Below are positions 1,741 through 60,482 of a DNA stretch of 64,000 nt, in pieces. The stretch is from Candidatus Moraniibacteriota bacterium. Lineage in GTDB: Bacteria; Patescibacteriota; Minisyncoccia; Moranbacterales; UBA1568. Where the stretch lies: NCBI GenBank assembly GCA_016699875.1, contig CP064989.1, forward strand, positions 712,788 to 776,787, in the 5' to 3' direction. Every line of letters starts with the position of its first letter. Within the stretch, counting starts at the first letter, position 1. Position numbers and translations under genes: made by a program. A model generated the notes under the pieces. The model saw nothing but the letters and a program-made list of their open reading frames with translations, made no database searches and was not told where the DNA came from.

Positions 1741-4700
1741 TTAAGAAGCTTTTTCTTCCCAGTGTTTTCGCTCGAAGATGAAATAGAGGAGAGGAAAGAT
1801 AATGAGAGTGAGGAAGGTGGACGCGGAGAGTCCGAAGATAATGGACCAGGCGAGTCCTTCCCAGACAGGATCGCTTACGATAGTGAGCGAACCGAGTATG
1901 GCGGCAAGCGAAGTTAGGACAATGGGGAGCAATCTAATGCGCCCGGCTTCTACAAGCGCTTCCCGCATTGGCATGCCGGCATGTCTGAGTGGCTCGAGGT
2001 ATTCCAAGTAGATGATAGCATTTTTTACGGAGAGCCCGGAAAGCGCGATGACGCCGATCATCGAGGTGGCATTGAAATACGTCCCTTTGACTGCTTGTAA
2101 GAATGCAAACCCGGGAAGTATGCCGATTAGTCCGAGCGGGATGCTTATCATGATGAGACCGGGTATGATGAGCGACTTTGTTCGTGCTGCCAAGACGAAG
2201 AATATGAGAAACAGGACAACTCCCATGACAATGCCCAGGTCACGGAACACTTCGATGGTCAGTTTCCATTCGCCGCCGATTTCTACGCGATACTGTTCGC
2301 CGGTCGATCGATCTTGATAGGTGACGCCGAGTGGCGACCAGGAAATCCTCTCCCCAGCATTGTCCGGGAGATGATAACTGAGAAGTGTGGGGAATATATC
2401 GAGCACGGCATAGACGATGCTTCGATTGCCCATCTCGGCGGATATGAACGTTGTTTCCAGACGATTATCGGAGAGTATGGCTTGCTCTGTCGGGGAGTTG
2501 ACCGGTTCAAGGAGATCGGTAATCGGTATGAGATCGCCGGACTTGCCAGAGATTTTTATACGTGACAGATCTTGTTCTTGCGAGCGATTTTCCGGCGCAA
2601 ACCGTATAACGATGTATCGCGGTTCTTTGGCAGGATTCTCGCGCGTCGTGCTGTGGAAGAGTCCCATGTTTGATCCGGAGAATGCTGTTTGAATTGACAT
2701 CTCAATATCCGGAAGTGAGACGCCAAGACGAGATGCCTTCTCTGTATTTATTCGATAGGTTGGGTTGATACCTCGTTCGGGAATCGAAGTGTCAATGTCG
2801 ACGACGCCATCTATATTTGCGGAAGCATTGGCGAGGTCGCGGGCGATTTGTTCTCGAATTTCGCTATTCGAACCCTTTACTTTCAGAAGAAAGGTTGAGA
2901 GAACTGGTGGCCCGGGTGGATCTTCAATGATGCGCGCGACAGCATCAGGAAATGCTTCGTGGAAATCGGTGAGGCTTTCCCGTACGCGAAAGGCAATTGC
3001 TTCTGATGTGATGCTGCGACTGTTCGATGCTGTGAGGTGAACTACGAGCGTTGCTTGGTTCTCAGTGGTTCTTTGGGAGCTTCCTTTGAAAAGTCCATTG
3101 AAATCAACTACGGGTGCCGTACCAACGAAACTCTCTACTTGGAGAATATCGGAATCTTTGAGAAGGATTGTTTCGATGGCGTGCGTCGCAGCATCGGTTG
3201 TATCGAGTGCTGTGCCGTCCGGAAGGTCGAGGTATACGGAGAAATGATCTTTGTCAGCTTTGGGAAGCATCCGAAAAGGTACGAGTGGCGTCAGGGGGAG
3301 TATAAGCGCGATAATGAGCGCCGCTCCGGTTGTCACGAGCACCAAGACGCGTTTCTTGCGGTGCATGAGAAGTGCGGACAGTGTTTGTTCGTATATCTTT
3401 TCAATTCTTTTGAACGTTCGTACGAAGAGATTGTCTTTCTCTGTATCTGCAAGGATTTTTCTTGGCATGGAAAGGAGGGAGAGAAACGGATTGAGCGTGA
3501 CGGAGATAATGAGTGACGCAAAGAGTGCTGCCGGCACGAAGAAGGGGATCGGTCCCATATAGGGTCCCATCATGCCGCTGACAAATGCCATAGGGAGAAA
3601 AGCGAGTGCCATAGTGAGAGTTGAAAGGGCGAGCGCGCCACCCACTTCGTCCACAGCCTGTACGATAAGCTTGATCCTGTTCTCATTTGGAAAGAGCCGA
3701 AAGGATCGTGCGATATTTTCTACCACGACTATAGCATCGTCAACGAGAAGTCCGAGCGAGAGTATGAGGGCGAAGAGTGTGATGCGATTTATTGTCTGAC
3801 CGGCAAGAAGTCCCATGCCGAAAACAGCAAGAAGCACGAGCGGTATTGATATCGATGCAACAAAGGCATTGCGCAGCCCAAGGAACAGTGCAAGGAGCGC
3901 GCCGACAATGACAATAGATTTAACGAGATCGAAAGAAAGCTTGGAAATTTCTTCGTGTGCTGTTGCGCCCTCATCGCGCAGAATCGATGTTTTGACTGTG
4001 TCCGGTACGAGAGTTTTTTGAAGATCTTCTAATTTTTTGAGTGCCTCGGTCGACACCGTAGTCGCGTTTTCTCCCTTGAGCTTCGAAAGAGTAATATGGA
4101 CTGTTTCACTGGCGTTTTCGTACCGCTCCGATATGCGGACATATTCCCGTATGTCGTCGGGCTCCAGGGAAATATCGGCGATATCTCCGAGTCGGAGTAT
4201 CGAATCACTTGCTTCTCGGATAGAGATATGTGAGAGATCATCGGGGTTCTCTATGATCCCAACAATGCTTATAAATGGATTCTTACCGATATTTTGGAGT
4301 TCGCTTATGGAGAGGGAGCCGTTTGATTTCCTTATGGCGTTCTCAATGTCGGCGATGGTGACATTTCTGGCGGTGAGTGCGTCGGCGTGCAGTGTTATTT
4401 TTAATTGCTCCGTATGTCCGCCGAGAATGTCTGCCGATGATATACCCGGTACCAGTTTGAGTATGTCGGCAATGTCGATGGCAAGTGCGCGTAAGGACGT
4501 CTCTGACAGTGTTGGCGATGTCAGGGCAATGTCGAGGATGGGAACATCGTCGGGACGTATTGATTGCACAAGCGGAGTTGAAGCGCCGAATGGCAGTGTC
4601 GTTTGTATATCTTGAAGCTTCTGATTAATTGCGAGTGTCGCGCTTTCTTCGGAATATCCGACGAGAAATTTCACGACGACAACGCTTTTCCCTCCGGCAA

Positions 4701-31519: not shown

Positions 31520-34500
31520 ATGCATTTCTTCAATCAAAACAAAAAGAGGAGCCTCTTCACTTTGATTCGTTCGGTGTTGCAGGCAGAAGAGCATTTCATT
31601 GTACTTCTTTCGGTAGGAATACTGGCGGGAGTTTGTCTCTGGGGAATGGCTTCTCAGTCTGTTTTTGCGCAGGCAATTCCCGGCACGGCACAGGTGCTGG
31701 GGAGTGAGAAGCAAATCAGTGCTTCGGCAATACTTCTGGATGGCAAAGGATCGCCAGTGCCAAATGGCGAGTATGAAGTGCGGTTTAGTATCTACCGTGC
31801 CGACCGGACAACGAGCGATCCGTATCCATCTGACACGGATGCCCCGCTTCGTGTGTGGGAGGAAACGCAAACAGCGACCGTGAAGAATGGCATCATGAAT
31901 GCCTATCTCGGTGTCACGACGCCTTTCCCTGGAAATCTTACTTTCGAAGGCGGGGAATACTTTCTTGGGGTTCGCGTGGGAACGGATTCGGAAATGATTC
32001 CGCGGAAGAAGTTCGGCACTTTCACCAATGCGATTAATTCGCAGTTTTTGCGTGGTCGGACATTTGGCACAAATGCGGGAGATATTGCGACCTATGGCAC
32101 CAATGGGAAATTTGATATCAAGCAGCTTCCGACGGGAACGAGCGGGAATAAGTTGCTTCTTGCAAACAATAAGGATTTTACGGGAGTGCTCGATGATGTA
32201 TCGGGTCTCTTGGATGATGTCTCAACGCTTCAGAACGACAGTCATGCGCAGAATACCGATACGGGGACAGACTCCCTGACATTCAATGTAGGATCCGATA
32301 CGGCAGTCGGCTCATCAAACTTTGGTTTTACTGTTTCGAGCGCTGGCACGAAACCGGAGCTCCGATATAACAGCTCTTTGAGTCAGTGGGAATTCTCCGA
32401 TGACGGTTCGGTCTTTACGGCACTCAATGCTGGTTCTGGAGGTGGCGTGAATGGATCGGGCACGAGCGGACAGATTGCCTACTGGACAGGGACAAGCACG
32501 CTTGGATCGGAAGCACATCTCTCAGCTTCGCGTGGTGGAACGGGTATCGACACATCAAGCTCGACGGGTGTGCCAGTTGTTTCGTCCGGCACATGGAGCA
32601 TTGCCTCGGCACTTGGCGTGTCGCAGGGCGGCACAGGACTTTCCTCAACACCAGCGAATGGGGAATTGCTTATCGGGAATGGATCCGGGTTTGCACTTGC
32701 GACGCTTTCGACTGGAAGTGGTCTTGCGCTTTCGAATGGGGCAGGATCAATTAACTTGGCACTTGACGTGACGACGACAGGCACAACTGCTACAACGCAG
32801 TCGAATTCTGGACTTGAGCTGGTTGCATCGGGACTTCGGCTTCTTGGCGGATGCTCCGATGGGGAAATACTTAAATGGGACAGTGGAAGCTCGGTGTGGG
32901 CATGTTCGAGTGATCTTGGTGGTGCAACGGCGATTATCAATGTGAATGAAGGGTCGACAGCCTATACTGGCATTGATACGCTTACATTTGACGCGGATGA
33001 CTTCAGTATTTCCCAACTCGGAAGCGAAGCAACAGTGACGATTGATTATGCAAATTCCGGTATCGCTCGGCTTGGTCAGGATGAAACCGTGACGGGGGCT
33101 TGGGACTTTTCCGGAAATACTACTTTTGGCACGATTGTTGGTGGTGTCTGGAATGGTACAGCGATCGGTGCGACCTATGGTGGCACTGGCATTAATACCT
33201 CCGGCTCAACTGGCGTACCGTATATAACGGGTGGCACATGGAGCGTTGATGCGACGGCGCTCTCGGTTGCACATGGAGGAACGGGTGCGACGAGTCTTGC
33301 AAACTTGATTGCCCTCACCACCGACACCACCGGCAACTACGTCCAATCCATTACCAATGGCAACGGTATCACTGGTGGAAACGGAGGATCTGAAGGAGCA
33401 ACTCTCACCCTCTCCCTCAACCTCCTCACCTCCGCAGACGGCACCGGCTCCACCTCCTCCAACTCCGGCCTCGAATTCCAAGGCACCAGCTCCAATGAAC
33501 TCTCTCTCCTCCAAGGATGTGCTAACAACGAAGTCCTTTCTTGGAACGACTCTACAAATGTCTGGCAATGTGCCAGCGTCTCCGGAGTAGGCGGTGTTAC
33601 CGGAAGCGCCACCAGCGGACAGGTTGCCTATTGGACCGGAACCTCAACGCTCTCCGGAGAAGATCAGGTAACTGTTGCCCAAGGGGGAACGGGAATCGGA
33701 AGCTATACCACCGGAGACATTCTCTATGCGTCAGGAGCCACAACTCTTGCCAAACTTGCTGATGTTGCAACCGGAAATGTTCTTATCTCCGGAGGGGTGG
33801 GAGTGCAACCGCAGTGGGGGAAGGTGGCGCTCGGAAGTGCTGTGAGTGGGACTCTTCCGGTAGCGAATGGAGGAACGGGGGCGACTACGCTCACGGCCAA
33901 CGGAGTCATTTATGGAAACGGTACTGGCGCCATTCAAGCGACTTCTGCCGGAACCGACGCTCAAATACTCATAGCCAATGCTTCCGGTGTGCCTACGTTC
34001 GTTACTCTGGGCGGCGACGCTACGGTCAACAATTCCGGATCTCTCACCATTGCTGCCAACAGTGTTGCCCTCACCACCGACACCACCGGCAACTACGTCC
34101 AATCCATTACCAATGGCAACGGTATCACTGGTGGAAACGGAGGATCTGAAGGAGCAACTCTCACCCTCTCCCTCAACCTCCTCACCTCCGCAGACGGCAC
34201 CGGCTCCACCTCCTCCAACTCCGGCCTCGAATTCCAAGGCACCAGCTCCAATGAACTCTCTCTCCTCCAAGGATGTGCTAACAACGAAGTCCTTTCTTGG
34301 AACGACTCTACAAATGTCTGGCAATGTGCCAGCGTCTCCGGAGTAGGCGGTGTTACCGGAAGCGCCACCAGCGGACAGGTTGCCTATTGGACCGGAACCT
34401 CAACGCTCTCCGGAGAAGATCAGGTAACTGTTGCCCAAGGGGGAACGGGAATCGGAAGCTACACCACCGGAGACATTCTCTATGCGTCAGGAGCCACGAC

Positions 34501-37500
34501 TCTCGCTAAACTTGCTGATGTCGCAACCGGAAATGTTCTTATCTCCGGAGGGGTGGGAGTGCAACCGCAGTGGGGGAAGGTGGCTTTGGGCACATATACC
34601 TCAGGGAATTACGTGGCGAATGCGAGTACGTCGACACTTACAGGGTTGACTGGCGGGTCCGGCGGATCGGTGGGCGCGTCGCTCTCGCTCGCTTTTGACT
34701 ACACGACTCCGCTTACGGGTGACCCGGCGCTTTCGGCAAACAATGCTATCTTTGGAACCAACGGACTCATCTTCGAAGGGGCGACCGCGAATACATTTGA
34801 GACCTATGTCACTTTGACTGACCCAACGGCAGATCGAACGCTGACGCTTCCCAATGTGACTGGAACGATTGCAACGCTGAATGGCGGTCAAATATTTACT
34901 TCCGCCACATGGAACGGCACGGCGATCGGCGCGACCTATGGCGGTACAGGCATCAATACGATTGGTTCAACCGGTGTGCCATATATAAATGGCGGGGCAT
35001 GGAGCGTCGACTCAGCGGCGCTTGCCGTGGCGCATGGTGGGACGGGACTTACGACTTTTGGCGGGACAAATACGCTTCTTTATACGACAACTGCTAATAC
35101 GCTCGCGTCTATTTCGGCTGCGGCAAATAGTATTCTGGTGACGAACGGGTCGAATGTTCCTTCGCTTTCGACCGATATCCCGACGGCGGTTACTATTGGT
35201 TCCGCCTATATCTACCGTGTGGGCGGTACTGATGTGTCGCTCGCCGACGGCGGCACCGGCTCCTCTCTCTCCGACCCCAATGCCGACCGCATCCTCTTCT
35301 GGGACGACTCCGCCGGAGCTGTCACCTGGCTTTCTCCTTCTTCCAACCTCTCTATTAGTACAACCACTCTTGATCTCGCCTCTTCCATAAACATCAATAC
35401 GCTCCAACTCGGCACCGACGGCACCGACGGTTCTTTCATCATCTACTCCGAACAAGGGGCAACTGACTATACCACTACCTTCCAACCGGGAGCACAGTCA
35501 CAAAACATTACCTATACGCTTCCGAATGATGATGGAACAAGCGGACAGGTGCTTATTACGGATGGGACGGGAGCACTCTCGTGGTCGAGTGTTTCCGGTG
35601 CGGGCGGTGTGACAGGGACAAGCACGAGCGGGTATGCAGTCTATTGGGATAGTACGAACTCGATTGCTGGCGAGCCATACCTCTCCTTAACTCGCGGTGG
35701 AACAGGAACAACGCTTTCCGATCCGGGAGCCGATCGCATTCTCTTCTGGGACGATTCGGTCGGTGCGATTGATTGGCTTTCTGCCGGATCAAATCTTTCT
35801 ATTAGTGGAACGACCATTAACCTCGCGTCGAGCATACAACTCGGATCGGACGGATCGGACGGAGTGCTTACCATTTATTCCGAGCAGGGTGCAACCGATT
35901 ATACCTCGACTTTCCAGCCGGGAACGCAGACGCAGAATATCACTTATACGCTGCCGGCGGATGATGGTGCTGCGAGTCAGGTACTCGTCACTGATGGGAC
36001 CGGGAACCTTTCGTGGCAATCGGTGTCTGGCGTTGGCGCGCTCGATGGATCAGGTTTAACTGATGCTGTTGCCTACTGGGTGGATAGCAACACGCTTACC
36101 TATGAAACAGCGCTCGCCCTTTCCCGTGGCGGCACCGGCTCCTCTCTCTCCGACCCCAATGCTGACCGCATCCTCTTCTGGGACGACTCTGCTGGAGCGG
36201 TCACTTGGCTTTCTCCTTCTTCCAACCTCTCTATTAGTACAACCACTCTTGACCTCGCTTCTTCTGTAAACGTCAATACTCTCCAACTCGGTACCGACGG
36301 CACCGACGGTTCTTTCATCATCTACTCCGAACAAGGGGCAACTGACTATACCACTACCTTCCAACCGGGAGCACAGTCACAGAACATCACCTATACGCTT
36401 CCGAATGATGATGGAACAAGCGGACAGGTGCTCATCACGGATGGATCAGGCATACTCTCCTGGACATCCGCTGGCTCTGGCGGTATCGGTGACATTACCG
36501 CGATCGGAGATGTAGCGAGTGGGGATGCCTTTACGGCAAGTGGTACCCAGGGAACCAGTCTCTACTTCTATGATGTGGATGGAAGGGGACAACTCACGAT
36601 TGCCAATCTCACGGCTGCTCGGATGTATACGCTTCCAGATGCCACTGGAACTATTATCACTACGGGCAATCTCACCGGTATTACCGCAACAGGCACGATT
36701 GCGAGTGGGACGTGGAATGGGACAGCGATCGGTGCAGCGTATGGCGGAACCGGACTTGATACATCCGGTGGTTCGACGACTGGAGTGCCTACTATTAGTA
36801 GTGGGGTGTGGAGTGTCTCGAGTTCGCTTGATGTGACGCTTGGTGGTACCGGCACGAGCGCACTTTCCTCCGGCGGTCTTCTCTATGGTAATGGCACTTC
36901 GGCAATCGGCGCTTTGAGCGTGATGACGAATGGCCAACTCCTTATCGGCGATGGCACGGGCGTGCCGACACTTGCGACGCTTTCGGAAGGGGATGGGGTT
37001 ACGGTGACAAATGGCGCCGGTTCCATCACCCTCTCCCTCAACCTCCTCACCTCCGCAGACGGTACCGGCTCCACCTCCTCCAACTCCGGCCTCGAATTCC
37101 AAGGCACCAGCTCCAATGAACTCTCTCTCCTCCAAGGATGTGCTAACAACGAAGTCCTTTCTTGGAACGACTCTACAAATGTCTGGCAATGTGCCAGCGT
37201 CTCCGGAGTAGGCGGTGTTACCGGAAGCGCCACCAGCGGACAGGTTGCCTATTGGACCGGAACCTCAACGCTCTCCGGAGAAGATCAGGTAACTGTTGCC
37301 CAAGGGGAACGGGAATCGGAAGCTATACCACCGGAGACATTCTCTATGCGTCAGGAGCCACAACTCTTGCCAAACTTGCTGATGTCGCAACCGGAAATGT
37401 TCTTATCTCCGGAGGGGTGGGAGTGGCACCGAGCTGGGGGAAGGTGGCATTGGGTACGCATACCTCGGGGAATTATGTTGCAAATGCGAGCACGTCGACC

Positions 37501-40500
37501 TTGACCGGTCTTACGGGCGGATCCGGCGGATCGGCGGGCGCGTCGCTCTCGCTCGCTTTTGACTACACGACTCCGCTTACGGGTGATCCGGCGCTTTCGG
37601 CAAATAATACAATCTTTGGAACAAACGGCCTTATATTTGAAGGGGCGACCGCGAATACATTTGAGACCTATGTCACTTTGACTGACCCAACGGCAGATCG
37701 AACACTGACACTTCCCAATGTGACCGGAACGATTGCAACGCTGAATGGCGGTCAAACATTTACTTCCGCCACATGGAACGGCACGGCGATCGGTGCGACC
37801 TATGGCGGTACAGGTATCAATACGATTGGTTCAACCGGTGTGCCATATATAAATGGCGGGGCGTGGAGCGTCGACTCAACAGCGCTTGCCGTGGCACATG
37901 GTGGCACGGGACTTACGACTTTTGGCGGGACAAATACGCTTCTTTATACGACAACTGCTAATACGCTCGCGTCTATTTCAGCTGCGGCAAATAGTATTCT
38001 GGTGACGAACGGGTCGAATGTTCCTTCGCTTGCAACTGATATCCCGACGGCGGTTACTATTGGTTCTGCCTATATCTACCGTGTGGGCGGTACTGATATA
38101 TCGCTCGCCGACGGCGGCACCGGCTCCTCTCTCTCCGACCCCAATGCTGACCGCATCCTTTTCTGGGACGACTCTGCCGGAGCGGTCACCTGGCTTTCTC
38201 CTTCTTCCAACCTCTCTATTAGTACAACCACTCTTGACCTCGCTTCTTCCGTAAACATCAATACTCTCCAACTCGGCACCGACGGCTCCGACGGCTCCTT
38301 CATCATCTACTCCGAACAAGGGGCAACTGACTATACCACTACCTTCCAACCGGGAGCACAGTCACAAAACATTACCTATACGCTTCCGAATGATGATGGA
38401 ACAAGCGGACAGGTGCTTATTACGGATGGGACGGGAGCACTCTCGTGGTCGAGTGTTTCCGGTGCGGGCGGTGTGACAGGGACAAGCACGAGCGGGTATG
38501 CAGTCTATTGGGATAGTACGAACTCGATTGCTGGCGAGCCATACCTCTCCTTAACTCGCGGTGGAACAGGAACAACGCTCTCCGACCCCAATGCTGACCG
38601 CATCCTTTTCTGGGACGACTCTGCCGGAGCGGTCACCTGGCTTTCTCCTTCTTCCAACCTCTCTATTAGTACAACCACTCTTGACCTCGCTTCTTCCGTA
38701 AACATCAATACTCTCCAACTCGGCACCGACGGCTCCGACGGCTCCTTCATCATCTACTCCGAACAAGGGGCAACTGACTATACCACTACCTTCCAACCGG
38801 GAGCACAGTCACAAAACATTACCTATACGCTTCCGAATGATGATGGAACAAGCGGACAGGTGCTTATTACGGATGGGACGGGAGCACTCTCGTGGTCGAG
38901 TGTTTCCGGTGCGGGCGGTGTGACAGGGACAAGCACGAGCGGGTATGCAGTCTATTGGGATAGTACGAACTCGATTGCTGGCGAGCCATACCTCTCCTTA
39001 ACTCGCGGTGGAACAGGAACAACGCTCTCCGACCCCAATGCTGACCGCATCCTTTTCTGGGACGACTCTGCCGGAGCGGTCACCTGGCTTTCTCCTTCTT
39101 CCAACTCTCTCTATTAGTACAACCACTCTTGACCTCGCTTCTTCCGTAAACATCAATACTCTCCAACTCGGCACCGACGGCTCCGACGGCTCCTTCATCA
39201 TCTACTCCGAACAAGGGGCAACTGACTATACCACTACCTTCCAACCGGGAGCACAGTCACAAAACATTACCTATACGCTTCCGAATGATGATGGAACAAG
39301 CGGACAGGTGCTTATTACGGATGGGACGGGCATACTCTCCTGGACATCCGCTGGCTCTGGCGGCATCGGTGACATTACCGCGATCGGAGATGTAGCGAGT
39401 GGGGATGCCTTTACGGCAAGTGGTACCCAGGGAACCAGTCTCTACTTCTATGATGCGGACGGCAGAGGACAACTCACGATTGCCAATCTTTCTGCGGCAC
39501 GGACGTATACGTTGCCGGATGTGAGTGGCACAATTGCAACACTGAATGGCGGACAGACCTTTACGAGTGCTACGTGGAACGGATCGACAGTCGGAGTGGC
39601 GTATGGCGGAACAGGCGTTACTACCTTTGGCGGGACGAATACGCTCCTCTATACGACTTCCGCCAATACACTGACATCACTCGCTACGGCAAACAGCTCG
39701 ATTCTTATTACGAATGGCTCCGGTGTTCCATCCATTGCAACCGATATCCCGACAGCAGTTACTATCGGCTCTTCCTATATCTATCGTGCGGGCGGGACTG
39801 ATGTGTCGGTTGCGGATGGTGGTACGGGCTTGAGTTCCTATACTGCTGGCGATCTTCTCTATGCTTCCAATACAACAACGCTCGCCGGGCTCGCCGATAT
39901 TGCCACCGGAAACGTGCTCCTCTCGGGTGGCGTTAGTTCGTCGCCATTGTGGGGAAAGGTAGTGCTTGGGACGCATACGACCGGGAACTATGTCGCATCG
40001 GCAACGGCGAGTGGGGGACTCACGATGACCGGGACGGCTGGAGGAAGTCTCGGCATTCTTCTTCAGCCTTCGACGGACGCGCTCTCCTCGACCACGAGCT
40101 CCGGATCAGGCATGGAACTTCTCTCGACTGGACTCTCACTTTTACAGGGTTGTTCAAATGAACAAGTGCTTTCTTGGAACGAAGCATCCGATGTGTGGGA
40201 ATGTTCGGACAAAACTGCTGGCACGAGCGACTGGACAGCAGTGATTGGGACGCCGAATTTCTCCTATCTCACTGATACGAGTGCACATTTGGTGGTAGGT
40301 GGATCGACGGAAGCGGCTGGTGCTTTTGATTTTGATGTGACTACCACAAAGCTCAATATTGGCGCGGCGGCAAGTTTTGACACATTCATTATTGCTCCGG
40401 TTACGAAGGGAACAACGTCCCATTCTGGGACATTGACTACTGCCGATCTTACAACAGCAAGTCGCACATGGACCCTCCCCGACGAAACTGGCACCATCTG

Positions 40501-43500
40501 TACCACTGGCAGCGTCTGCTCCGGCTACCAAGCTGCCGGCTCCTACCTCACCACTTCTACTTCCTTTGCCGGCGGAGACATTGCTTCCGGAACCTACAAT
40601 ACTCTCTCTCTTGCTTCCAGTATCACTCGCGATACCGAATGGGATACCGCTGCCGAGATCAATGCGGCTACAACAGACACCGACTTCGCTTACGCCGCCC
40701 TCTCCAACCTCGCCTCCGTCGCCATCAACACGAGCCTCATCTCCGATACGGACAATACCGATGATCTCGGTTCTGCTGCTATTGGCTGGAAAGATATTTA
40801 CTCCCGCACCCTCAAGCTTGATGGATCTACCTCTGGCACGATTACTCTCCAAGCAGCTGCTACTGCAGGTACCAATACTATCACCCTTCCGGCAAGCACG
40901 GGGACAGTAGCGCTTACGAGCGATCTTCACTCCGCTGTCACATTCGGAGTCTCATCTTACGACTATCTCACCCTTTCCGGACAAGAAATCACTCTTGGAC
41001 AAATTGATCTCACAACCGATGTGACAGGAACGCTGCCGGTGGGGAATGGGGGGACGGGCGTAGCGACCTTCGGCGGGACGAATACACTTCTCTATACTTC
41101 TTCTGCTAATACGCTTGCATCGATTGCGACTGCAAATTCTTCATTCTTGACCACGAACGGTTCTGGTGTGCCGAGCTTTGCCGCGCTTTCTGCAGACACA
41201 TTTACTCAGTATGCACTTCTTGCCGGAAGAAGCGGAGGGCAGACCATTATTGGCGGAACAGGTGCGGGCGATGACCTCACATTCCAGACAACCTCCAATG
41301 GTACCAAAGGCTCATATATCTTCTCCGAACTCGGAAGTGGACTGGTGCTTTCAACATCGGGAACGCTTTCAGTGGTTACAAATACGCTTCATACACAGAA
41401 TACGGACACAGGAACAGATGGCACGACATTCACGGTTGGGGATGGCACTACGGTATTTACGGTTGATACCAGCGCGACCAACGATACTATTATTATCGAG
41501 CAGGGAACATACGATTCTATACTCTCTTTCACTCAACCGGGTGCTGCTGACCAAACCTATACGTTCGCAACAGGAGGAACAGTTTGTACCACTGGCAGCG
41601 TCTGCTCCGGCTACCAAGCCGCCGGCTCCTACCTCACCACTTCTACTTCCTTTGCCGGCGGAGATATCGCTTCCGGAACCTACAATACTCTCTCTCTTGC
41701 TTCCAGTATCACTCGCGATACCGAATGGGATACCGCTGCCGAGATCAATGCGGCTACAACAGACACCGACTTCGCTTACGCCGCCCTCTCTAATCTCTCC
41801 TCCGTCGCCATCAACACGAGCCTTATCTCCGATACGGACAATACCGATGATCTCGGTTCTGCTGCTATTGGCTGGAAAGATATTTACTCCCGCACCCTCA
41901 AGCTTGATGGATCTACCTCTGGCACGATTACTCTCCAAGCAGCCGCTACTGCAGGTACCAACACCATCACCCTTCCGGCAAGTACAGGGACAGTAGCGCT
42001 CACCAGTGATCTTCACTCTGCGGTTACCCTCTCTGGATCCTACGACTACATCACCCTCTCTGGACAAGACATCGTCCGAGGACAAATCGACCTTACGACC
42101 GATGTGACAGGGACACTGCCGGTGGGGAATGGGGGGACGGGCGCGATTACATTTACCACGAATGGTATTCTCTATGGCAATGGTACGAGTGCTATTGCGG
42201 TAACAGCAGCTGGAACAGATACGCAAATACTTTCCAATTCATCGGGCACGCCGGGATGGATCAATCAGTCCTCTATTAGTGCGGGCACACTCGACGGTAT
42301 CGATTCGCTCTCATTCCTCCGATCCGACACGAGTGACTCTTTCACGAGCGGCACGCTTTCATTTTCCGACGGAACACTGCTCGATCTCTCATCAATTGCT
42401 CATGATGACTCGGCTCCACAAGGTTTGAAACTCCCACAGAACACAACGCTCACAAATATCGTTGGCGGTGGGGCAGGGTATATCGCGTATGATACGACGG
42501 CGAATACGGTAAAGATGTTTAATGGCACCTCTTGGCTGAGCATTGGTGGTGCTTCAACTACACTTCAAGATGCGTACAGTAATGATGTTGATGGATCTGA
42601 CGCAACGATTTCTCTCACAACCGCCGATGATTCACTTATCTTTACCAATCCATCTTCAAGCGGGACGGACTCCGCGTTTTTGCTCCAGCTTAATCAGGCT
42701 AATACGACCGCTGGTGTTGTTGCGCTTGACATTATTCAGTCATCAAACAATGCGAATGCTGTCAACATCACTGCCAACTCAATCGATACGGAGACAGGAC
42801 TCTCTGTTACGGCGAATGCGCTTACAACTGGAACGGGTTTAAGCGTTACACATACTACAAGTGTCATTGCTAATGGTGGATCGCTTTTGCGTCTTTCTTC
42901 AAGTTCGGTTGATACCAGTACGACAACGGGGACACTTCTCGATCTTTCTTCCACCGGATCAACTGCCGGAACGATTGCGCTTATTACCAACAACACGGCT
43001 TCATTCACAGGAATTACTCAAAGCATCGTAGCGAACGGTATTTCGTCGGGTACCGGTCTTGCTATTGCCTCTTCCTCTGCCGCTATGACCGGTTCTCTCC
43101 AGTCCATCACGCTTTCCGGAAGCAATGCTTCAAACACAGGCAATCTTCTCTATCTCAATAGTTCCGGTGCGAACAGTGTTGCGAAAGCTTTGAACGTTGC
43201 TATTGCCTCGACCGGGAACTTCTCGACAACCGGAGGTGTGAACTTTACCTTTAGTGGAGCACACACGGGGACAGGATTTGCCGTAAGCGATGCAACGGCA
43301 ACCGGGACAGCAGTCTCTATCACGGCAAACAGTATCTCGACCGGCACGGGTGTGAGTATTGCTTCGACGTCGACCGCTGGCGGTGCGAGTGGATCTTCCT
43401 ATCTCCTCAATCTCTCCCGAAGCGGTGCGAATTCCAATTCGAGCCATACAGCATACGGCATATATTCCTCAGTGACGAATACCGGTACCTCGGCAGTCAA

Positions 43501-50089: not shown

Positions 50090-50218
50090 TCGTCATTCCC
50101 GTGAAAACGGGAATCCAGTTGCGACTCGTTCAGGATTGCATTCTGTGAATGAAACTTGCAACGATATTTGTTGAGGGTGAGTGGAACCTGGTTCCCCGCC
50201 TTCGCGGGGATGACGAGT
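50090..50218 (+). repeat. 129-bp hairpin-rich palindromic repeat element in the atpA-atpG intergenic region; same family as the in-frame copy in leuS
   Basis: Terminal inverted repeats CGTCATTCCCG / CGGGGATGACG. 5' hairpin ATTCCCGT-gaaa-ACGGGAAT (GNRA loop). 3' hairpin TCCCCGC-cttc-GCGGGGA. A central stem GTTGC...GCAAC. The 5' 27 nt and 3' ~25 nt are homologous to 56395-56467. Confidence 0.6.
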
Positions 50219-53811: not shown

Positions 53812-54918
53812 ATGAATCAAGAGGTTTTTGTGAAAATAACCCGATGGTTAGCGTATGCGGCGATTGGGGTATTGTTGGTTGCAATATTCATTGTCTTTTT
53901 CGGGAAGGGAATCAACCGCGGAACGTCGTACCAACAGAATGGGCTGGGAGTTTCCGGCGAGGCATCGTCTTGGCGGGGGATGAGCAATATGATGGGGGGA
54001 GATGCTGATGAATCTGGGGTTACGACAGAATCGTCGGTTCCGGTTGCGGCAGATGCGGCTGGATCGGGGTATGCCGGGAAAATGATGGCAGCGGGAAACC
54101 CCGACTTCTCGACGGTCGCGCCGGATATGATGGAGGGGAATAGTGCTGTAGCTGAAACGGAAAAACGCGTGGTGCGGAACGGAGATCTATCAATTCGCGT
54201 CGAAGACGCCGAATGGTCAGCGGACGAAATCGATCGCATCGCGACGCGGCTCGGCGGGTTTACGGCATCTCGGTCGATCAGTAGCAGCATGCCGGGGTAT
54301 CCGATGCCGATGGTGCAGGATGAATCAATGGGATACGGTATTTAAAAACAGTCGTCGAACGCTCCGCAAACCGGAGTGGTGACAATCAAAATTCCTTCTG
54401 ACAAGTTTGCCGAAGCAAATGCGGCGATTCGTAGCATCGCGAGTGTTGTATTGAATGAATCGTCGTCGGCGAGCGATGTGACAGCACAGTTTGCCGATCT
54501 TGAGGCACGTATCAAGAATAAGTATGCCGAGGAAGAAGCGTTTACCAAGATTCTTAATACGACATCGGGGAAGGTGGCGGATATTTTGCAGGTGACGCGC
54601 GAGCTTTCACGGGTTCGCAGTGAGATCGAACAGCTCGAAACACAGAAAAAGTATATGGAGTCGCAGACCGACATGGCGTCGATCTCGGTTTCTCTGAGTG
54701 AAGATGTGAAGGTGGGCACGACGACAAATTCCTGGCGGCCATGGCAAACCGTGAAGTCGGCTGTGAATGCTCTGATCTCCCAATGTCGAAATTTCATCGA
54801 CGGCGCGATCTATTTCGTGGTCTCGGTGGTTCCGGTGTTTCTGCTGTACCTTTTGGGAGTGTACGTGGTATACAAAGCTGGGAAAGGAATATATCGGAGA
54901 TTGTATCCAAGAGTTTAG
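53812..54918 (+). CDS. DUF4349-family membrane-anchored protein interrupted by an in-frame TAA (54343-54345). The track shows two same-frame ORFs, 53812..54345 and 54376..54918.
   Basis: N-terminal TM (LAYAAIGVLLVAIFIVFF). The DUF4349 core begins KRVVRNGDLSIRVEDAEWSADEIDRIATRLGGF before the stop and continues VTIKIPSDKFAEA...SSSASDVTAQFADLEARIKNK...LSRVRSEIEQLETQKKYMESQTDMASISVSL after it. A C-terminal TM follows. Both parts are in the same frame. Confidence 0.6.
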
Positions 54919-55526: not shown

Positions 55527-58500
55527 ATGAAACATGCTTCATATGATCCGAAAGAAATAGAGCCGAAGTGGCAGAAATATTGGGAGGAGCAGGGGCTTTT
55601 TCATGCGAAGACCGGATCGAAAAAGAAGAAATTTTACGGGTTGGTCGAGTTTCCATACCCGTCTGGAGACGGGCTTCATACCGGGCATGTGCGCGGGTAT
55701 ACGGCGATGGATGTGATCGCACGGAAGCGGCGGCACGAAGGATTTGAAGTACTTTATCCGATCGGATGGGATGCGTTTGGACTCCCGACCGAGAATTTTG
55801 CTATCAAGCACGGCGTGCGTCCGGAAGTGGTGACGAAGAAAAACACGGATAATTTCCGGCGACAGATGCAGTCGCTCGGGTTTTCGTTTGACTGGTCGCG
55901 GGAAATAAATACGACCGATCCAGAATACTATAAGTGGACGCAGTGGATATTTCTTCAGCTTTTCAAAAAAGGGTTGGCATATAAACAGAAAATGGAAATC
56001 AACTGGTGTCCGTCATGCAAGATCGGTCTTGCGAATGAAGAAGCGCAGGGCGGCGTGTGCGAACGGTGTGGTGGTCCAACGGAAAAAAAAGAGAAAGAGC
56101 AGTGGATGTTGGCGATTACAAAATACGCCGATCGGTTGGACAAGGATTTGGACAGTGTTAACTATCTCGACAAGATAAAAGTTCAACAAAGAAACTGGAT
56201 CGGGAGGTCGGAGGGAGCGCTGGTGAAATTTAAAATTTCTTCCTCCTCCCACCCTCATCAAGATGAGAGTTCTTCTCGGTTAGAGGATCGGGAACGATAT
56301 ATCGAGGTATTCACGACGCGAGTGGATACGATTTTCGGGTGCACATATGTGGTGGTGGCGCCGGAGCACCACATTATTGCACATCTTTTGCAATGTCATT
56401 CCCGCGAAGGCGGGAATCCAGGCTCTGCGAACATTCTGGATCCCCGGGTCAAGCCCGAGGATGACAGCTTACTTTTGGTTGAGAATGCAGAGAAGATTCG
56501 AGAGTATATAGAAGAGGTGAAAAAGAAATCCGAGGAAGATCGGCTCGATGCGACGAAAGAAAAAACCGGCGTAAAGCTCGAAGGGATTGAGGCAGTGAAT
56601 CCGTTTACCGGTGAAAGTGTGCCGGTATTCGTTGCTGACTATGTATTGGGAAATTATGGCACGGGTGCGGTGATGGCAGTCCCGGCGCATGACGAACGGG
56701 ATTGGGAATTTGCGAAGAAGTACCGACTTCCCTTGAAATCGGTAGTTATTCCGAGTGTTGTAAATCAGAAGAATCTCCCGGTTCCAGGAAAATCAGTCGT
56801 GTTTCGAGAGACTATCAGTGCCATCGTGTATGACCCGAAGAAAAATAAGTATCTTGCTCTGAAGTGGAAAAAAAATGATTGGACTACATTCGTGATTGGC
56901 GGGGTGGAACAAGGGGAGGATGTTATTGATGCGGCAAAGCGAGAAGTTCGAGAGGAAACAGGCTATACCGATCTCAAATATATTCGGACTTTGGGCGGAC
57001 CGGTAGAGGCGAAATATTTCGTGTCACATAAAGACGAAAATCGCATGGCACATATACATGCCGTGTTGTTTGAATTGGAGAGTGAAGACAGAATATCTGT
57101 TTCAGAAGAGGAGAAAGAAAAACATCCGACAATATGGATTGAGGAATCGTCTCTTAGTCCGGATGTAATGTTTGATGTCGATGCTCCATTCTGGTTTGCT
57201 CGCCTAAAGTCTGAGGAAAATGAGGTTGTTACTGAAAGCGGCGTCCTCATTGAATCTGGAGAATTCTCCGGTCTGAAATCCGAAGAAGCGCGGGAGAAAA
57301 TGATCCAATGGCTGGAGGAAAAAGGACTCGGGAAGAAGCAGACGAATTACAAACTTCGAGACTGGGTATTTTCTCGGCAGCGATATTGGGGCGAGCCGAT
57401 TCCCTTGGTGAAATGTGATGCGTGCGGATGGGTACCGGTTTCCGAAGACGAGCTTCCTGTCGAATTGCCAAGAGTCGAGTCGTATACACCGACGGACACG
57501 GGGGAGTCGCCCCTCTCGGCGATGGAGGAATGGGTCGCGACGAAGTGTCCGAAGTGCGGCGGACCGGCACAGCGCGAGACGGACACGATGCCTAACTGGG
57601 CGGGATCGAGCTGGTACTTTCTTCGATACGCCGATCCGGAAAATACGAAAGCACTTGCATCAAAGAGCGCGCTCGAATATTGGACGCCCGTCGATTGGTA
57701 CAATGGCGGCATGGAGCACACGACGCTTCACCTCTTGTATTCTCGTTTTTGGCACAAGTTTCTCTATGATATCGGCGTAGTGCCGACCTCCGAGCCGTAT
57801 CAGAAGCGCACCTCGCATGGGCTTATCCTTGCCGAGGGCGGCGTCAAGATGAGCAAGTCGAAAGGGAATGTGGTGAATCCGGATGATATTGTGCGGCGGT
57901 TCGGCGCGGATACGCTTCGGGTGTACGAAATGTTCATGGGACCATTCGATCAAAATGTCGCCTGGAGTACGGAGAGTATTGCCGGGTCAAGACGGTTTTT
58001 GGAGAAAGTGTGGAAATTGGGTATTGGAATGAAGAATCAGGAAACGGGAAGAAAGAAGGAAGATGCTCACGCGGGAAATGTTTCCGTGAAAACTCTGCTG
58101 CATAAAACGATCAAAAAAGTGTCTGAGGATATCGAGGCGATGCGGTTTAATACGGCGATTAGCGCGCTCATGATTTTGGTGAATGAGATGGAGAAAACAG
58201 AGTCGATGTCGCGAGAAGATTTTGAAACGCTGCTCGTATTACTTTCTCCGTTTGCACCGCATGTTGCGGAAGAGCTCTGGAGTCTTGTCGGGAATGCGGG
58301 GTCAATTCTCTCGACCAAGTGGCCGGAAGCAAACCCGAAGTATCTCGTGGCAGATGAAGTGGAAGTGGTAGTGCAAGTCAACGGAAAACTTCGCGCGCGG
58401 CTTCGTATTGTCTCCGGATCGACGAGAGAAGAAGTGGAGAGCGCGGCACGTGCTGATCTTCTTGTGTCGAAGCATCTCGATGGAAAAGAAGTTCGAAAGA

Positions 58501-58544
58501 CCGTCTTTGTCCAAGACCGCCTGGTGAATTTCGTGGTGGGTTGA
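55527..58544 (+). CDS. leuS: Leucyl-tRNA synthetase carrying (i) a 24-aa insertion in the editing domain encoded by a repeat element and (ii) an embedded Nudix hydrolase domain
   Basis: HIGH-type HTGH, KMSKS (VKMSKSKGN), the LeuRS zinc knuckle ([12 protein letters not shown]...CERCGG), editing-domain markers ([19 protein letters not shown] ... [22 protein letters not shown]) and the C-terminal [11 protein letters not shown] domain. The track ORF starts at 55428; [21 protein letters not shown] at 55527 is the typical LeuRS start. Confidence 0.95.
56395..56467 (+). repeat. ~72-bp copy of the hairpin repeat element inserted in-frame in the leuS editing domain
   Basis: GTCATTCCCGCGAAGGCGGGAATCCAGG...CTGGATCCCCGGGTCAAGCCCGAGGATGACAG. 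Its ends are homologous to the atp-operon element at 50090-50218, including compensatory stem changes. It is translated as [25 protein letters not shown]. Confidence 0.55.
56755..57235 (+). other. Nudix hydrolase domain embedded in LeuRS, between the editing domain and the return to the catalytic core
   Basis: [51 protein letters not shown] contains a complete Nudix box (G-x5-E-x7-R-E-U-x-E-E-x-G-U). E. coli LeuRS has ~25 aa at this position versus ~165 aa here. Confidence 0.7.
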
Positions 58545-59039
58545 AGTTGACAGGCGTCCGGGAATTTGGCTAGGATAGCGGTGAGCTTTGCGAAACCGCA
58601 AGGCGGGGCAGTTGATTTACCAATTTGTTGAGGAGATTCGAGATGATCAAGAAACCAGTCATTTTCCCGATTGATGGACAAACGACATATACGAATGTGA
58701 TAGATTCGTTTTTCAATCTATTCCAACATGATGCGGCAAGAGAAATGGTTGGGATGGTTAAGTTTAACGATGCGTTGCACATCTCTCCTGGTGGAGGCAA
58801 GGAACTTATCACTGGAATTCGAGATGTTTCGAGAGAGAATGGATGGAGTATGGCGGAAATTTTCCTTGATCTGAAATTATTCGATGTCTCGGGGACGATT
58901 AGTAATATGCTAAAACAGTATGCTGAAATGTCCCCAGCAGTTATTACGGTGTCATCGGAGGTTTCATGCCAATCGCTCCTTAGAACCTGTTTACAATCTT
59001 CTGGTACACTGAGGACATAATCCTCAAACCAAAAGAACC

Positions 59040-59486
59040 ATGTATCCAAGCGACATAACCCGAGAACAATTCGAACACATCAGACCATTTCTCGAATCAA
59101 CCAGGAAGAGAACCAAACCAAAGACACTTGATTCCTATGACGTATTCAACGCTCTGCTCTACATTCTGGTCACGGGTTGCCAATGGAGGGCACTTCCCAA
59201 GGATTATCCAAAATGGCAGAGTGTCTATCGACACTTCCTTGTCTGGAAGGAACGAAAAAACAAACAGACAGAGAGTATGCTTGAGCAAGTCTTAAAAAAA
59301 TTGGTCGAACAAGAACGTATGAAAAATGGCAAACAATGCAAAACCAGTTTCTGCATCGTTGATGCTCAAAGTGTCAAGAATACAGATACGGCTCGAGAAA
59401 AAGGTTATGATGCAGGAAAAAAGTTTCCGGTATCAAGCGACATATTCTCGTTGACACCAACGGATTGCCGCATGCGTTCACGGTAA
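59040..59486 (+). CDS. IS5-family transposase OrfA (N-terminal HTH / DUF4096-like part)
   Basis: YDVFNALLYILVTGCQWRALPKDYPKWQSVYRHFLVWKE is typical of IS5/IS1031 transposase N-termini. Slippery heptamer A-AAA-AAG at ~59419-59425. Confidence 0.8.
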   Translation: MYPSDITREQFEHIRPFLESTRKRTKPKTLDSYDVFNALLYILVTGCQWRALPKDYPKWQSVYRHFLVWKERKNKQTESMLEQVLKKLVEQERMKNGKQCKTSFCIVDAQSVKNTDTAREKGYDAGKKFPVSSDIFSLTPTDCRMRSR

Positions 59487-59821
59487 CCACTGCTAACGTC
59501 ACTGATCGAAATGGAGCTATCCAAGCCGTCAAGGCAAACAAAAAACACCTTTCACGGGTGGAGAAACTCTTGACTGATGGTAGTTATACCGGAGAAAACT
59601 TCGCCAAAGCGATCAAAGCATGTATCGGTGCGGAAGTGGGAGTAGCTAAACGAAACGAATTGCATACGTTTGCCGTTCTTCCTCAGCGCTGGGTGGTCGA
59701 GAGAAGCTTCTCCTGGCTGGAGAAATGCCGAAGGCTCTGGAAGAATTGCGAACGGACACTGGATTCGAGCTTACAGATGATGGTTTTAAGTTTTGCTCGA
59801 TTGTTGTTGAAAAGATTGTAA
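59420..59821 (+). CDS. IS5-family transposase OrfB (DDE catalytic part), probably expressed as an OrfAB fusion by -1 frameshifting
   Basis: The -1 frame continues KVSGIKRHILVDTNGLPHAFTVTTANVTDRN...LTDGSYTGENF...PQRWVVERSFSWLEKCRRL (DDE_Tnp_1-like). The track ORF is 59465..59821. Confidence 0.75.
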   Translation, partial: KVSGIKRHILVDTNGLPHAFTVTTANVTDRNGAIQAVKANKKHLSRVEKLLTDGSYTGENFAKAIKACIGAEVGVAKRNELHTFAVLPQRWVVERSFSWLEKCRRLWKNCERTLDSSLQMMVLSFARLLLKRL

Positions 59822-60482
59822 ACAGGTTCTTAGGATACGTGAAATATTTCCGAGTGCACTCATTGCCTTGGTTGGAGCTCTTACGGATATCTCGGAGGAT
59901 GAATTCAGGAGGAAGCATGGAATGACTCCTGCAGAATATATCGCAGAAATGCTCCTGTTCTTCGAAGATGAAATTGGTGAGGAGAATCCGATAGGTGCTT
60001 TTGTATGTAGTCCGCTCGAAGTACGGTGTCTCAAGGATGAATTTGGTGACCGATTCAAGGCAATTGTCCCCGGAGTTCGGAGTTTATTCATGGAGCCGGA
60101 TCATCAGAAACGGGTGGCGAGTCCATACGACGCACTTCTGGCTGGTGCGGAATATTTGGTTATCGGTTCGCAGCTCAAGGAGGGTTTGAAAGCGGGGCTT
60201 TTTCAGGAAGATCGGGTGAATCGCACGAACGCAGAGATTAAACGTGCTTATACGCAGCTTGTTCACTGATAGCTAGCGAGTTTTAGGTGTCGAGAGAGCA
60301 TCAGAGACACTCTCTCACTTTCTAAAGTGGAGGAAATAGCTGGTACCCCGGTTCATGCGGTCTCAACATGTTCCGGACTTTTGCAGATGTTGGATGACCT
60401 CGGAATGAATCGAGAGGCAGATGCAATTCGATCATATCGAGAACAATATGGATTCTTCTAAAAGACGAAAAAGCCTGTTTAT

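Follow-up and report, generated by a model that had tools for sequence, protein, structure and literature searches.

In this study, we analyzed a 64,000-nucleotide stretch of contig CP064989.1 from a Candidatus Moraniibacteriota bacterium (hereafter the window), and found a palindromic element lying in-frame within leuS, the gene for leucyl-tRNA synthetase (LeuRS). The segment is very probably a heterodimer of two CGTC-tagged repetitive extragenic palindromic sequences (REPs), arranged tags-outward like a REPIN, and thus a piece of non-autonomous palindromic DNA inside an essential gene. The original prediction of a repeat element with hairpin-bearing inverted ends at this place was borne out: the element (Table 1) folded better than shuffled sequences both as RNA and as single-stranded DNA (z = -3.2 in either case). 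In the predicted single-stranded DNA folds, the outer tags were closed and two unit hairpins plus a central stem were formed, with the leuS copy taking the shape of a three-hairpin junction.

Assignment to this family was based on the structure of the units. According to Di Nocera, De Gregorio & Rocco (2013, BMC Genomics 14:522, PMC3733652), CGTC-tagged REPs occur predominantly as inverted dimers with spacers of 20-100 bp and have no associated transposase; each unit has a terminal CGTC (often TGTC, with CCTC as a variant), a stem of 8 bp (families 1 and 2) or 9 bp (families 3 and 4) whose first pairs are A-T and T-A, a loop of 4 nt in family 1 and 5 nt in families 2-4, and a CCA tail. A purpose-written unit detector found four units in the 64-kb window, forming two dimers that were both inverted, one in leuS and the other between atpA and atpG, and all four units had the complete set of structural features of a CGTC REP. 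Both leuS units were tagged with TGTC and both atp units with CGTC, three of the stems were 8 bp long (ATTCCCGC, ATTCCCGT and ATCCCCGC; loops GAAG, GAAA and GAAG, respectively) and one was 9 bp long with a single mismatch (ATCCTCGGG; loop CTTGA), and each unit ended in CCAG. The right unit of the leuS copy, for which a near-identical counterpart was present in a locus of another organism, therefore belongs to a subtype (9-bp stem, 5-nt loop) that differs from that of the atp right unit.

Comparison of the two dimers provided further evidence. The 27-mer of the leuS left unit, GTCATTCCCGCGAAGGCGGGAATCCAG, had three sites in the window at no more than three mismatches (56395 on the plus strand, 50092 on the plus strand and 50188 on the minus strand), whereas 0.00 matches were expected from 100 dinucleotide shuffles, so that the similarity is significant against such controls. 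The claim that both ends are shared between the two copies was thus upheld for the left end but not for the right one, where just the tail and tag (CTGGNTCCCCG...GGATGAC) are common to both. We also confirmed the reported compensatory change, as the last stem pair of the left units is C-G in the leuS copy and T-A in the atp copy. The atp units are separated by 69 nt, and this copy folded as single-stranded DNA with z = -4.2 against shuffles. The orthologous atpA-atpG spacer of locus L127 is only 12 nt long. Separately, the atpA-atpG spacer of locus L001 (positions 2497-2695) was found to hold a different inverted-repeat element (CCAAACTCCCGCATTTGGC ... GCCAAATGCGGGAGTTTGG) where the window has the CGTC REP dimer. 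No match to Rfam was obtained in the window at gathering thresholds, and no flanking direct repeats (target-site duplications) were found at either the leuS or the atp copy. The hexamer CTTTTG, present both 10 nt upstream of the leuS copy and 7 nt downstream of it, was considered as a target-site duplication and rejected as a chance occurrence, because it is neither adjacent to the element nor shared by the other filled alleles described below.

Table 1. Location and composition of the CGTC-tagged REP dimers in the window and of the gene hosting one of them.
Feature	Positions	Strand	Composition	Basis
leuS coding sequence (LeuRS with internal NUDIX domain), host of the element	55527-58544	+		Pfam; 100% identity to P0001
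Inverted dimer of two CGTC-tagged REP units in leuS, tags outward	56394-56466	+	72 nt	sequence, unit detector, translation, single-stranded DNA fold
Left unit of leuS dimer, CGTC-1 type	56394-56421	+	TGTC / ATTCCCGC / GAAG / GCGGGAAT / CCAG; 8-bp stem	sequence; family definition
Spacer between leuS units	56422-56435	+	GCTCTGCGAACATT; 14 nt	sequence
Right unit of leuS dimer, 9-bp stem/5-nt loop type	56436-56466	-	minus strand: TGTC / ATCCTCGGG / CTTGA / CCCGGGGAT / CCAG, one stem mismatch; plus strand: CTGG ATCCCCGGG TCAAG CCCGAGGAT GACA	sequence, unit detector
Intergenic dimer between atpA and atpG, two CGTC-1 units, tags outward	50091-50215	+	125 nt; left unit: CGTC / ATTCCCGT / GAAA / ACGGGAAT / CCAG; right unit, reverse complement: CGTC / ATCCCCGC / GAAG / GCGGGGAA / CCAG; right unit, plus strand: CTGG TTCCCCGC CTTC GCGGGGAT GACG	sequence, shuffles, unit detector, fold

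The host gene remained open and full-length despite the element. Its product of 1005 aa is 100% identical to the NCBI protein P0001 from a Candidatus Moraniibacteriota metagenome-assembled genome (MAG), encoded on a contig of 1,088,644 bp, and the catalytic, editing and anticodon-binding domains were all detected by Pfam, in agreement with the claim that the reading frame is kept within the editing domain. Three of the six frames of the element are open, and the one used codes for residues C290-D313, the right unit being read as DPRVKPEDD. With regard to the 24 residues said to be added, the length of the element (72 nt, i.e., 24 codons) fits this figure, but the peptide originally quoted has 25 residues and the loop as a whole is 27 residues longer than in orthologues with an empty site. 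In the window LeuRS, the loop between APEH and a conserved N consists of 8 + 24 + 6 residues, whereas it comprises 11 residues in the closest orthologues (P0002-P0011, 64-76% identical), from which the insert is absent. An alignment of the 120 best orthologues revealed the insert in 3 of approximately 117 aligned proteins and its absence from approximately 114; besides the window LeuRS, only P0016 and P0035 carried a related insert. Thus, the insert is lineage-specific, as had been proposed.

The phmmer alignment to the LeuRS of Thermus thermophilus (1H3N) was interrupted at query residues 293-318. In an AlphaFold2 model built on 46 sequences (mean predicted local distance difference test (pLDDT) score, 83.9), pLDDT fell below 50 for residues 290-314, which correspond exactly to the insert and lie between two helices of the editing domain (282-288 and 321-331); just two other short segments were as poor, and the model was otherwise confident outside the insert. 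The insert is therefore probably a hydrophilic, disordered loop of 24 residues in the editing domain, and this prediction accords with the expectation that it would fall in a surface loop. A phmmer search with the 31-aa insert against 1.84 billion representatives yielded 14 weak matches, mostly to short multi-stretch proteins, which were little informative on host genes.

Other variation in domain content was observed in these synthetases. In the window LeuRS, the editing domain is followed by an internal domain of the NUDIX hydrolase type (residues 427-543, window positions 56805-57155, Pfam E = 1.6e-12), and nearly all of the 120 best orthologues, which are mostly unnamed metagenomic proteins with the named ones chiefly from Moraniibacteriota, have it as well. 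It is missing in some LeuRS proteins (P0016, P0024, P0092 and L128), and alpha/beta-hydrolase or HAD domains have been added in other orthologues.

A search of related genomes for further copies had also been proposed originally. An exact-pattern scan for the 25-nt core of the left unit, GTCATTCCCGNGAANNCGGGAATCC, in one genome per species identified at least 120 loci from many phyla, in both isolates and MAGs; the taxa and counts that follow refer to the matches listed. They included Alpha-, Beta- and Gammaproteobacteria, Deltaproteobacteria (Thermodesulfobacteriota), Magnetococcales, Bacteroidota, Chloroflexota, Planctomycetota, Nitrospirota, Acidobacteriota, Gemmatimonadota, Zixibacteria, Omnitrophota, Poribacteria and Vampirovibrionales, as well as four lineages of the candidate phyla radiation (CPR), namely Paceibacteria, Parcubacteria, Saccharibacteria and Peribacteria. 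The unit detector reported 253 units in the window and the loci analyzed with it, compared with one in reversed-sequence controls. Within the 120 scan loci, more than three-fourths of the neighboring pairs (67 of 85) were arranged tags-outward, and dimer lengths ranged from 55 to 200 nt when the window and locus L003 were included. Among 64 partner units that the search had not constrained, 47 carried a CGTC and 16 a TGTC tag, with CCAG or CCAT as tails. Double changes at stem pairs 2, 3 and 6 of the partner units are illustrative only, because the detector itself demanded pairing. Of 158 element clusters in the 120 loci, 25 fell within an open frame extending for 60 codons or more in both directions, and host genes could be verified by Pfam for four of ten clusters tested, all with in-frame dimers: a Mur ligase gene (Massilia), the gene for queuine tRNA-ribosyltransferase (TGT) in a CPR Parcubacteria MAG, and those for UvrA and TruB.

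In-frame occupation of coding sequences by such repeats has a precedent. In-frame CGTC-1 peptides such as CHSRE(S/G)... or WIPAFAGMT are among those given in the 2013 paper (PMC3733652). Its Additional file 3 contains copies from R. conorii (CHSRESGDP in UvrC, VIPAKAGI in several proteins and DSRFRGND in biotin-protein ligase) and from a Coxiella protein (RYSRAGGNP), together with in-frame dimers of 20-30 aa, among whose hosts are the isoleucyl-tRNA synthetase (IleRS) of E. litoralis (VTPAEAGVSPGHEQIPASAGMT), TruB (RHPREGGDPANLGDHDESQLDPRLRGG) and GlyRS-beta. These published examples are translations of the CGTC-1 unit in frames that are also found in the leuS copy. Thus, although the in-frame occupation itself was confirmed here, the behavior is not new, and since its occurrence in housekeeping genes, including those for aminoacyl-tRNA synthetases, was published in 2013 (PMC3733652), our finding is less notable than first assumed. 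What is new is the CPR host lineage, the host gene leuS and the repeated use of one LeuRS loop.

With respect to its origin, the palindromic DNA would have been inserted into leuS and then transcribed and translated within LeuRS. If GTAG REPs and the Neisseria REPIN are taken as a guide, it may have been mobilized as a single-stranded DNA hairpin by an HUH/Y1 (RAYT-like) or some other enzyme acting in trans. Once translated, the insert would form a disordered loop of 24 additional, hydrophilic residues that separates two helices on the periphery of the CP1 editing domain, and its effect on LeuRS would be close to neutral. Such an element could survive in an essential gene because its length is divisible by three, it is read in a stop-free frame and its site is a length-variable loop; the loop that holds it does vary in length among orthologues. 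The analysis established family membership by structure, the in-frame status, the lack of the insert in close orthologues and a predicted disordered loop, and we hold the account as a whole with high confidence.

Several points weigh against this account. First, four lineages of LeuRS that have diverged deeply are occupied at one and the same codon, with a right unit conserved at the nucleotide level, which simple neutral junk would not predict. Second, there is no transposase candidate for the element in the window or in the approximately 1.0 Mb of REP-bearing loci. Searches by tblastn with three RAYT/TIRYT queries from the 2013 supplement gave no match at E <= 0.1 in the window and 128 loci (approximately 1.0 Mb), which agrees with the statement that CGTC REPs are without a dedicated transposase (PMC3733652), and the sole transposase in the part of the window examined is the DDE enzyme of an IS5-family element, the ends of which are unrelated to those of the REP dimer. 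Third, the unit counts given for the window cover 64 kb of a 1.09-Mb genome, and copy number and mobility at the genome-wide level are beyond their scope. Finally, that the insert is translated is something we infer.

The first of these points deserves closer consideration. A REP dimer was found at the same codon in four LeuRS genes: those of the window, L001 (P0035), L003 (P0016) and L128, the last being a JGI contig found by a leuS-plus-tag pattern. In each gene, eight residues separate APEH from the dimer and six separate the dimer from the conserved N, and the elements measure 72, 72, 66 and 78 nt, all multiples of three. The four carrier proteins are 52-66% identical, and in a neighbor-joining tree the three full-length carriers did not form a clade: P0001 was paired with P0004 and P0016 with P0013 as sisters, both partners having an empty site. 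Among the four, identity of the right unit is 87-97%, compared with 58-74% for the 120-nt coding flanks, and 10 of the 14 spacer positions of the window copy are the same in the L001 copy. The left units match the repeats of their respective genomes; that of L003 represents a different subtype and has an identical counterpart in an intergenic unit of its contig, and that of L128 (in-frame element at 4533-4610 on the minus strand of the locus) has a perfect 16-nt palindrome, TCCGCCAGCTGGCGGA, nested in its loop. In L003, a compensatory change from C-G to T-A perfects the pairing of the right stem and alters two amino acids. In the L001 copy, the tag is mutated and the stems contain mismatches, and it folds no better than shuffled sequences (z = -1.2). 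All four alleles share three additional codons on the right side of the element; these were considered as a part of it and rejected, intergenic copies being without them. No units were detected in the nearest relatives whose site is empty (L125-L127, together 48 kb).

The filled sites may result from recurrent insertion, or from conversion by repeats of the same genome, at a preferred site, and they fit equally well with one old insertion followed by several precise losses and structure-preserving evolution. The variable loop of the LeuRS editing domain in Moraniibacteriota-type bacteria could be a specific target that is recurrently hit by CGTC-type REP dimers, or could hold an ancient insertion kept at the nucleotide level, but we regard this as rather unlikely. 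If it were true, whether through site-directed insertion or a functional hairpin, these 1-Mb genomes would offer a compact system for finding the enzyme or host factor by which CGTC REPs are maintained across phyla. As a separate observation, a further clade of Moraniibacteriota was found to carry, in this LeuRS loop, an in-frame insertion of a different kind (leuS of P0017, L129 positions 1487-1800; also P0012). It consists of tandem 81-nt (27-codon) repeats with hairpins of their own (GCTCCCCTCGGGCAGGGGAGC; GTCCTGAATACAGGAC) and encodes FSHPSVLNTGQLPSGRGAG-type repeats.

A further possibility is that the insertion has been taken over by its host, the hairpin in DNA or mRNA or the editing-domain peptide being functional and kept by selection in the carriers. 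The identical place of the dimer in four LeuRS genes that are only 52-62% identical would suit such a role, as would the excess conservation of the right unit over its coding flanks and the L003 change that keeps the right stem despite two amino-acid replacements. However, the insert is absent from the nearest relatives of each carrier, the L001 copy has decayed in tag, stem and fold, and no structure is predicted for the peptide. Moreover, among the matches listed, CGTC units are as conserved across phyla in intergenic DNA, so that conservation of the right unit need not mean a leuS-specific role. Selection by the host thus appears improbable.

We also considered a conventional MITE (a miniature transposable element with inverted repeats), i.e., a deletion derivative of an insertion sequence (IS) moved by a DDE transposase, for example that of the IS5-family element 0.5 kb downstream of leuS. 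The element does have inverted ends, and the IS5-family element (58977-59835) has inverted repeats of 24 nt, but the ends of the latter, TCCTTAGAACCTGTTTACAATCTT, are unrelated to those of the element, neither copy is flanked by a direct repeat, and each "inverted repeat" is a tagged hairpin typical of REPs, unlike the end of an IS. The neighboring IS was therefore rejected as a parent, and a MITE origin is very improbable. The element is better described as a REPIN-like REP dimer than as an IS-derived MITE: target-site duplications and a matching transposase were both lacking. The IS5-family element itself contains two overlapping open reading frames (ORFs; DUF4096 and DDE_Tnp_1), as in frameshift-expressed transposases, and appears to interrupt a gene starting near 58644. 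Finally, chance resemblance or an assembly artefact, with the loop being native LeuRS sequence, might be suggested by the presence of just two elements in the window, but is excluded by the three matches observed against 0.00 expected, by the occurrence of the 25-mer in at least 120 loci of isolates and MAGs, by related leuS dimers in independent ENA, NCBI and JGI assemblies and by the lack of these residues in most orthologues.

Two other features of the window were noted. A stop at 54343-54345 divides a DUF4349 gene (53812-54918) into separate ORFs at 53812-54345 and 54376-54918; in the relatives L001, L126 and L127 this is a single gene of approximately 370 aa, and the window version may be a pseudogene or reflect a sequencing or recoding issue. 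Long diverged direct repeats at 33000-42200, with 300-nt units in several copies of 73-100% identity, probably encode a giant repeat protein.

Our reading of the leuS segment as a CGTC-tagged REP heterodimer extends these REPs, and their habit of entering housekeeping genes in-frame, to reduced CPR genomes and to LeuRS. For annotation, it implies that odd inserts of 20-30 residues that read DPRVKPEDD in CPR proteins are repeat-derived and not lineage-specific domains. In addition, the 25-nt core is near-identical across more than ten phyla among the matches listed, with no linked transposase, and the repeated occupation of a single LeuRS loop offers a concrete test case for this.

Comparison with known systems places the element as follows. 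It resembles the GTAG-tagged REPs and REPINs of gammaproteobacteria (E. coli, Pseudomonas) in being a short tagged hairpin that forms inverted doublets and spreads non-autonomously, and REPINs in general in that two inverted REPs with a short spacer are predicted to fold as one hairpin; the GTAG systems differ in their tag and in a well-supported RAYT association, which is lacking here. The similarity to Neisseria is closer, as the REP ATTCCCGCGCAGGCGGGAATC and the left unit ATTCCCGCGAAGGCGGGAATC are one loop base apart and both form inverted doublets. For the Neisseria dRS3 repeats/REPINs, a cognate Group 2 RAYT has been reported, and the copies are described as extragenic and often clustered (Bertels & Rainey, bioRxiv 10.1101/2021.07.10.451892), whereas no RAYT was found in the window or the approximately 1 Mb of REP-bearing loci searched here. 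CGTC-1 has been equated with these Neisseria repeats and with the Rickettsia palindromic element (RPE) RPE-6 of R. conorii, and CGTC-4 with RPE-4 (PMC3733652). The RPE-like behavior originally proposed is thus more than an analogy: RPE-6 and RPE-4 are likewise palindromic repeats lying in-frame in genes for functional proteins, although the host phylum and lifestyle differ and the classic RPE-1 is a longer and different element. The relation to RPE-6 would follow from its equation with CGTC-1 and from the match of the left unit to peptides in the published list. The nearest counterpart appears to be CGTC-1 itself, with which the element shares the CGTC/TGTC tag, an 8-bp stem starting with AT, a 4-nt loop, the CCA tail, the inverted dimers with spacers of variable length, the absence of a linked transposase and the in-frame copies. 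It differs from CGTC-1 in that leuS is absent from the in-frame hosts in the consulted part of the 2013 list (PMC3733652), that the host is a CPR/Patescibacteria genome of approximately 1.1 Mb outside the five phyla of that survey, and that the leuS dimer is a hybrid in which a CGTC-1 unit is joined to one whose stem is 9 bp and whose loop is 5 nt long.

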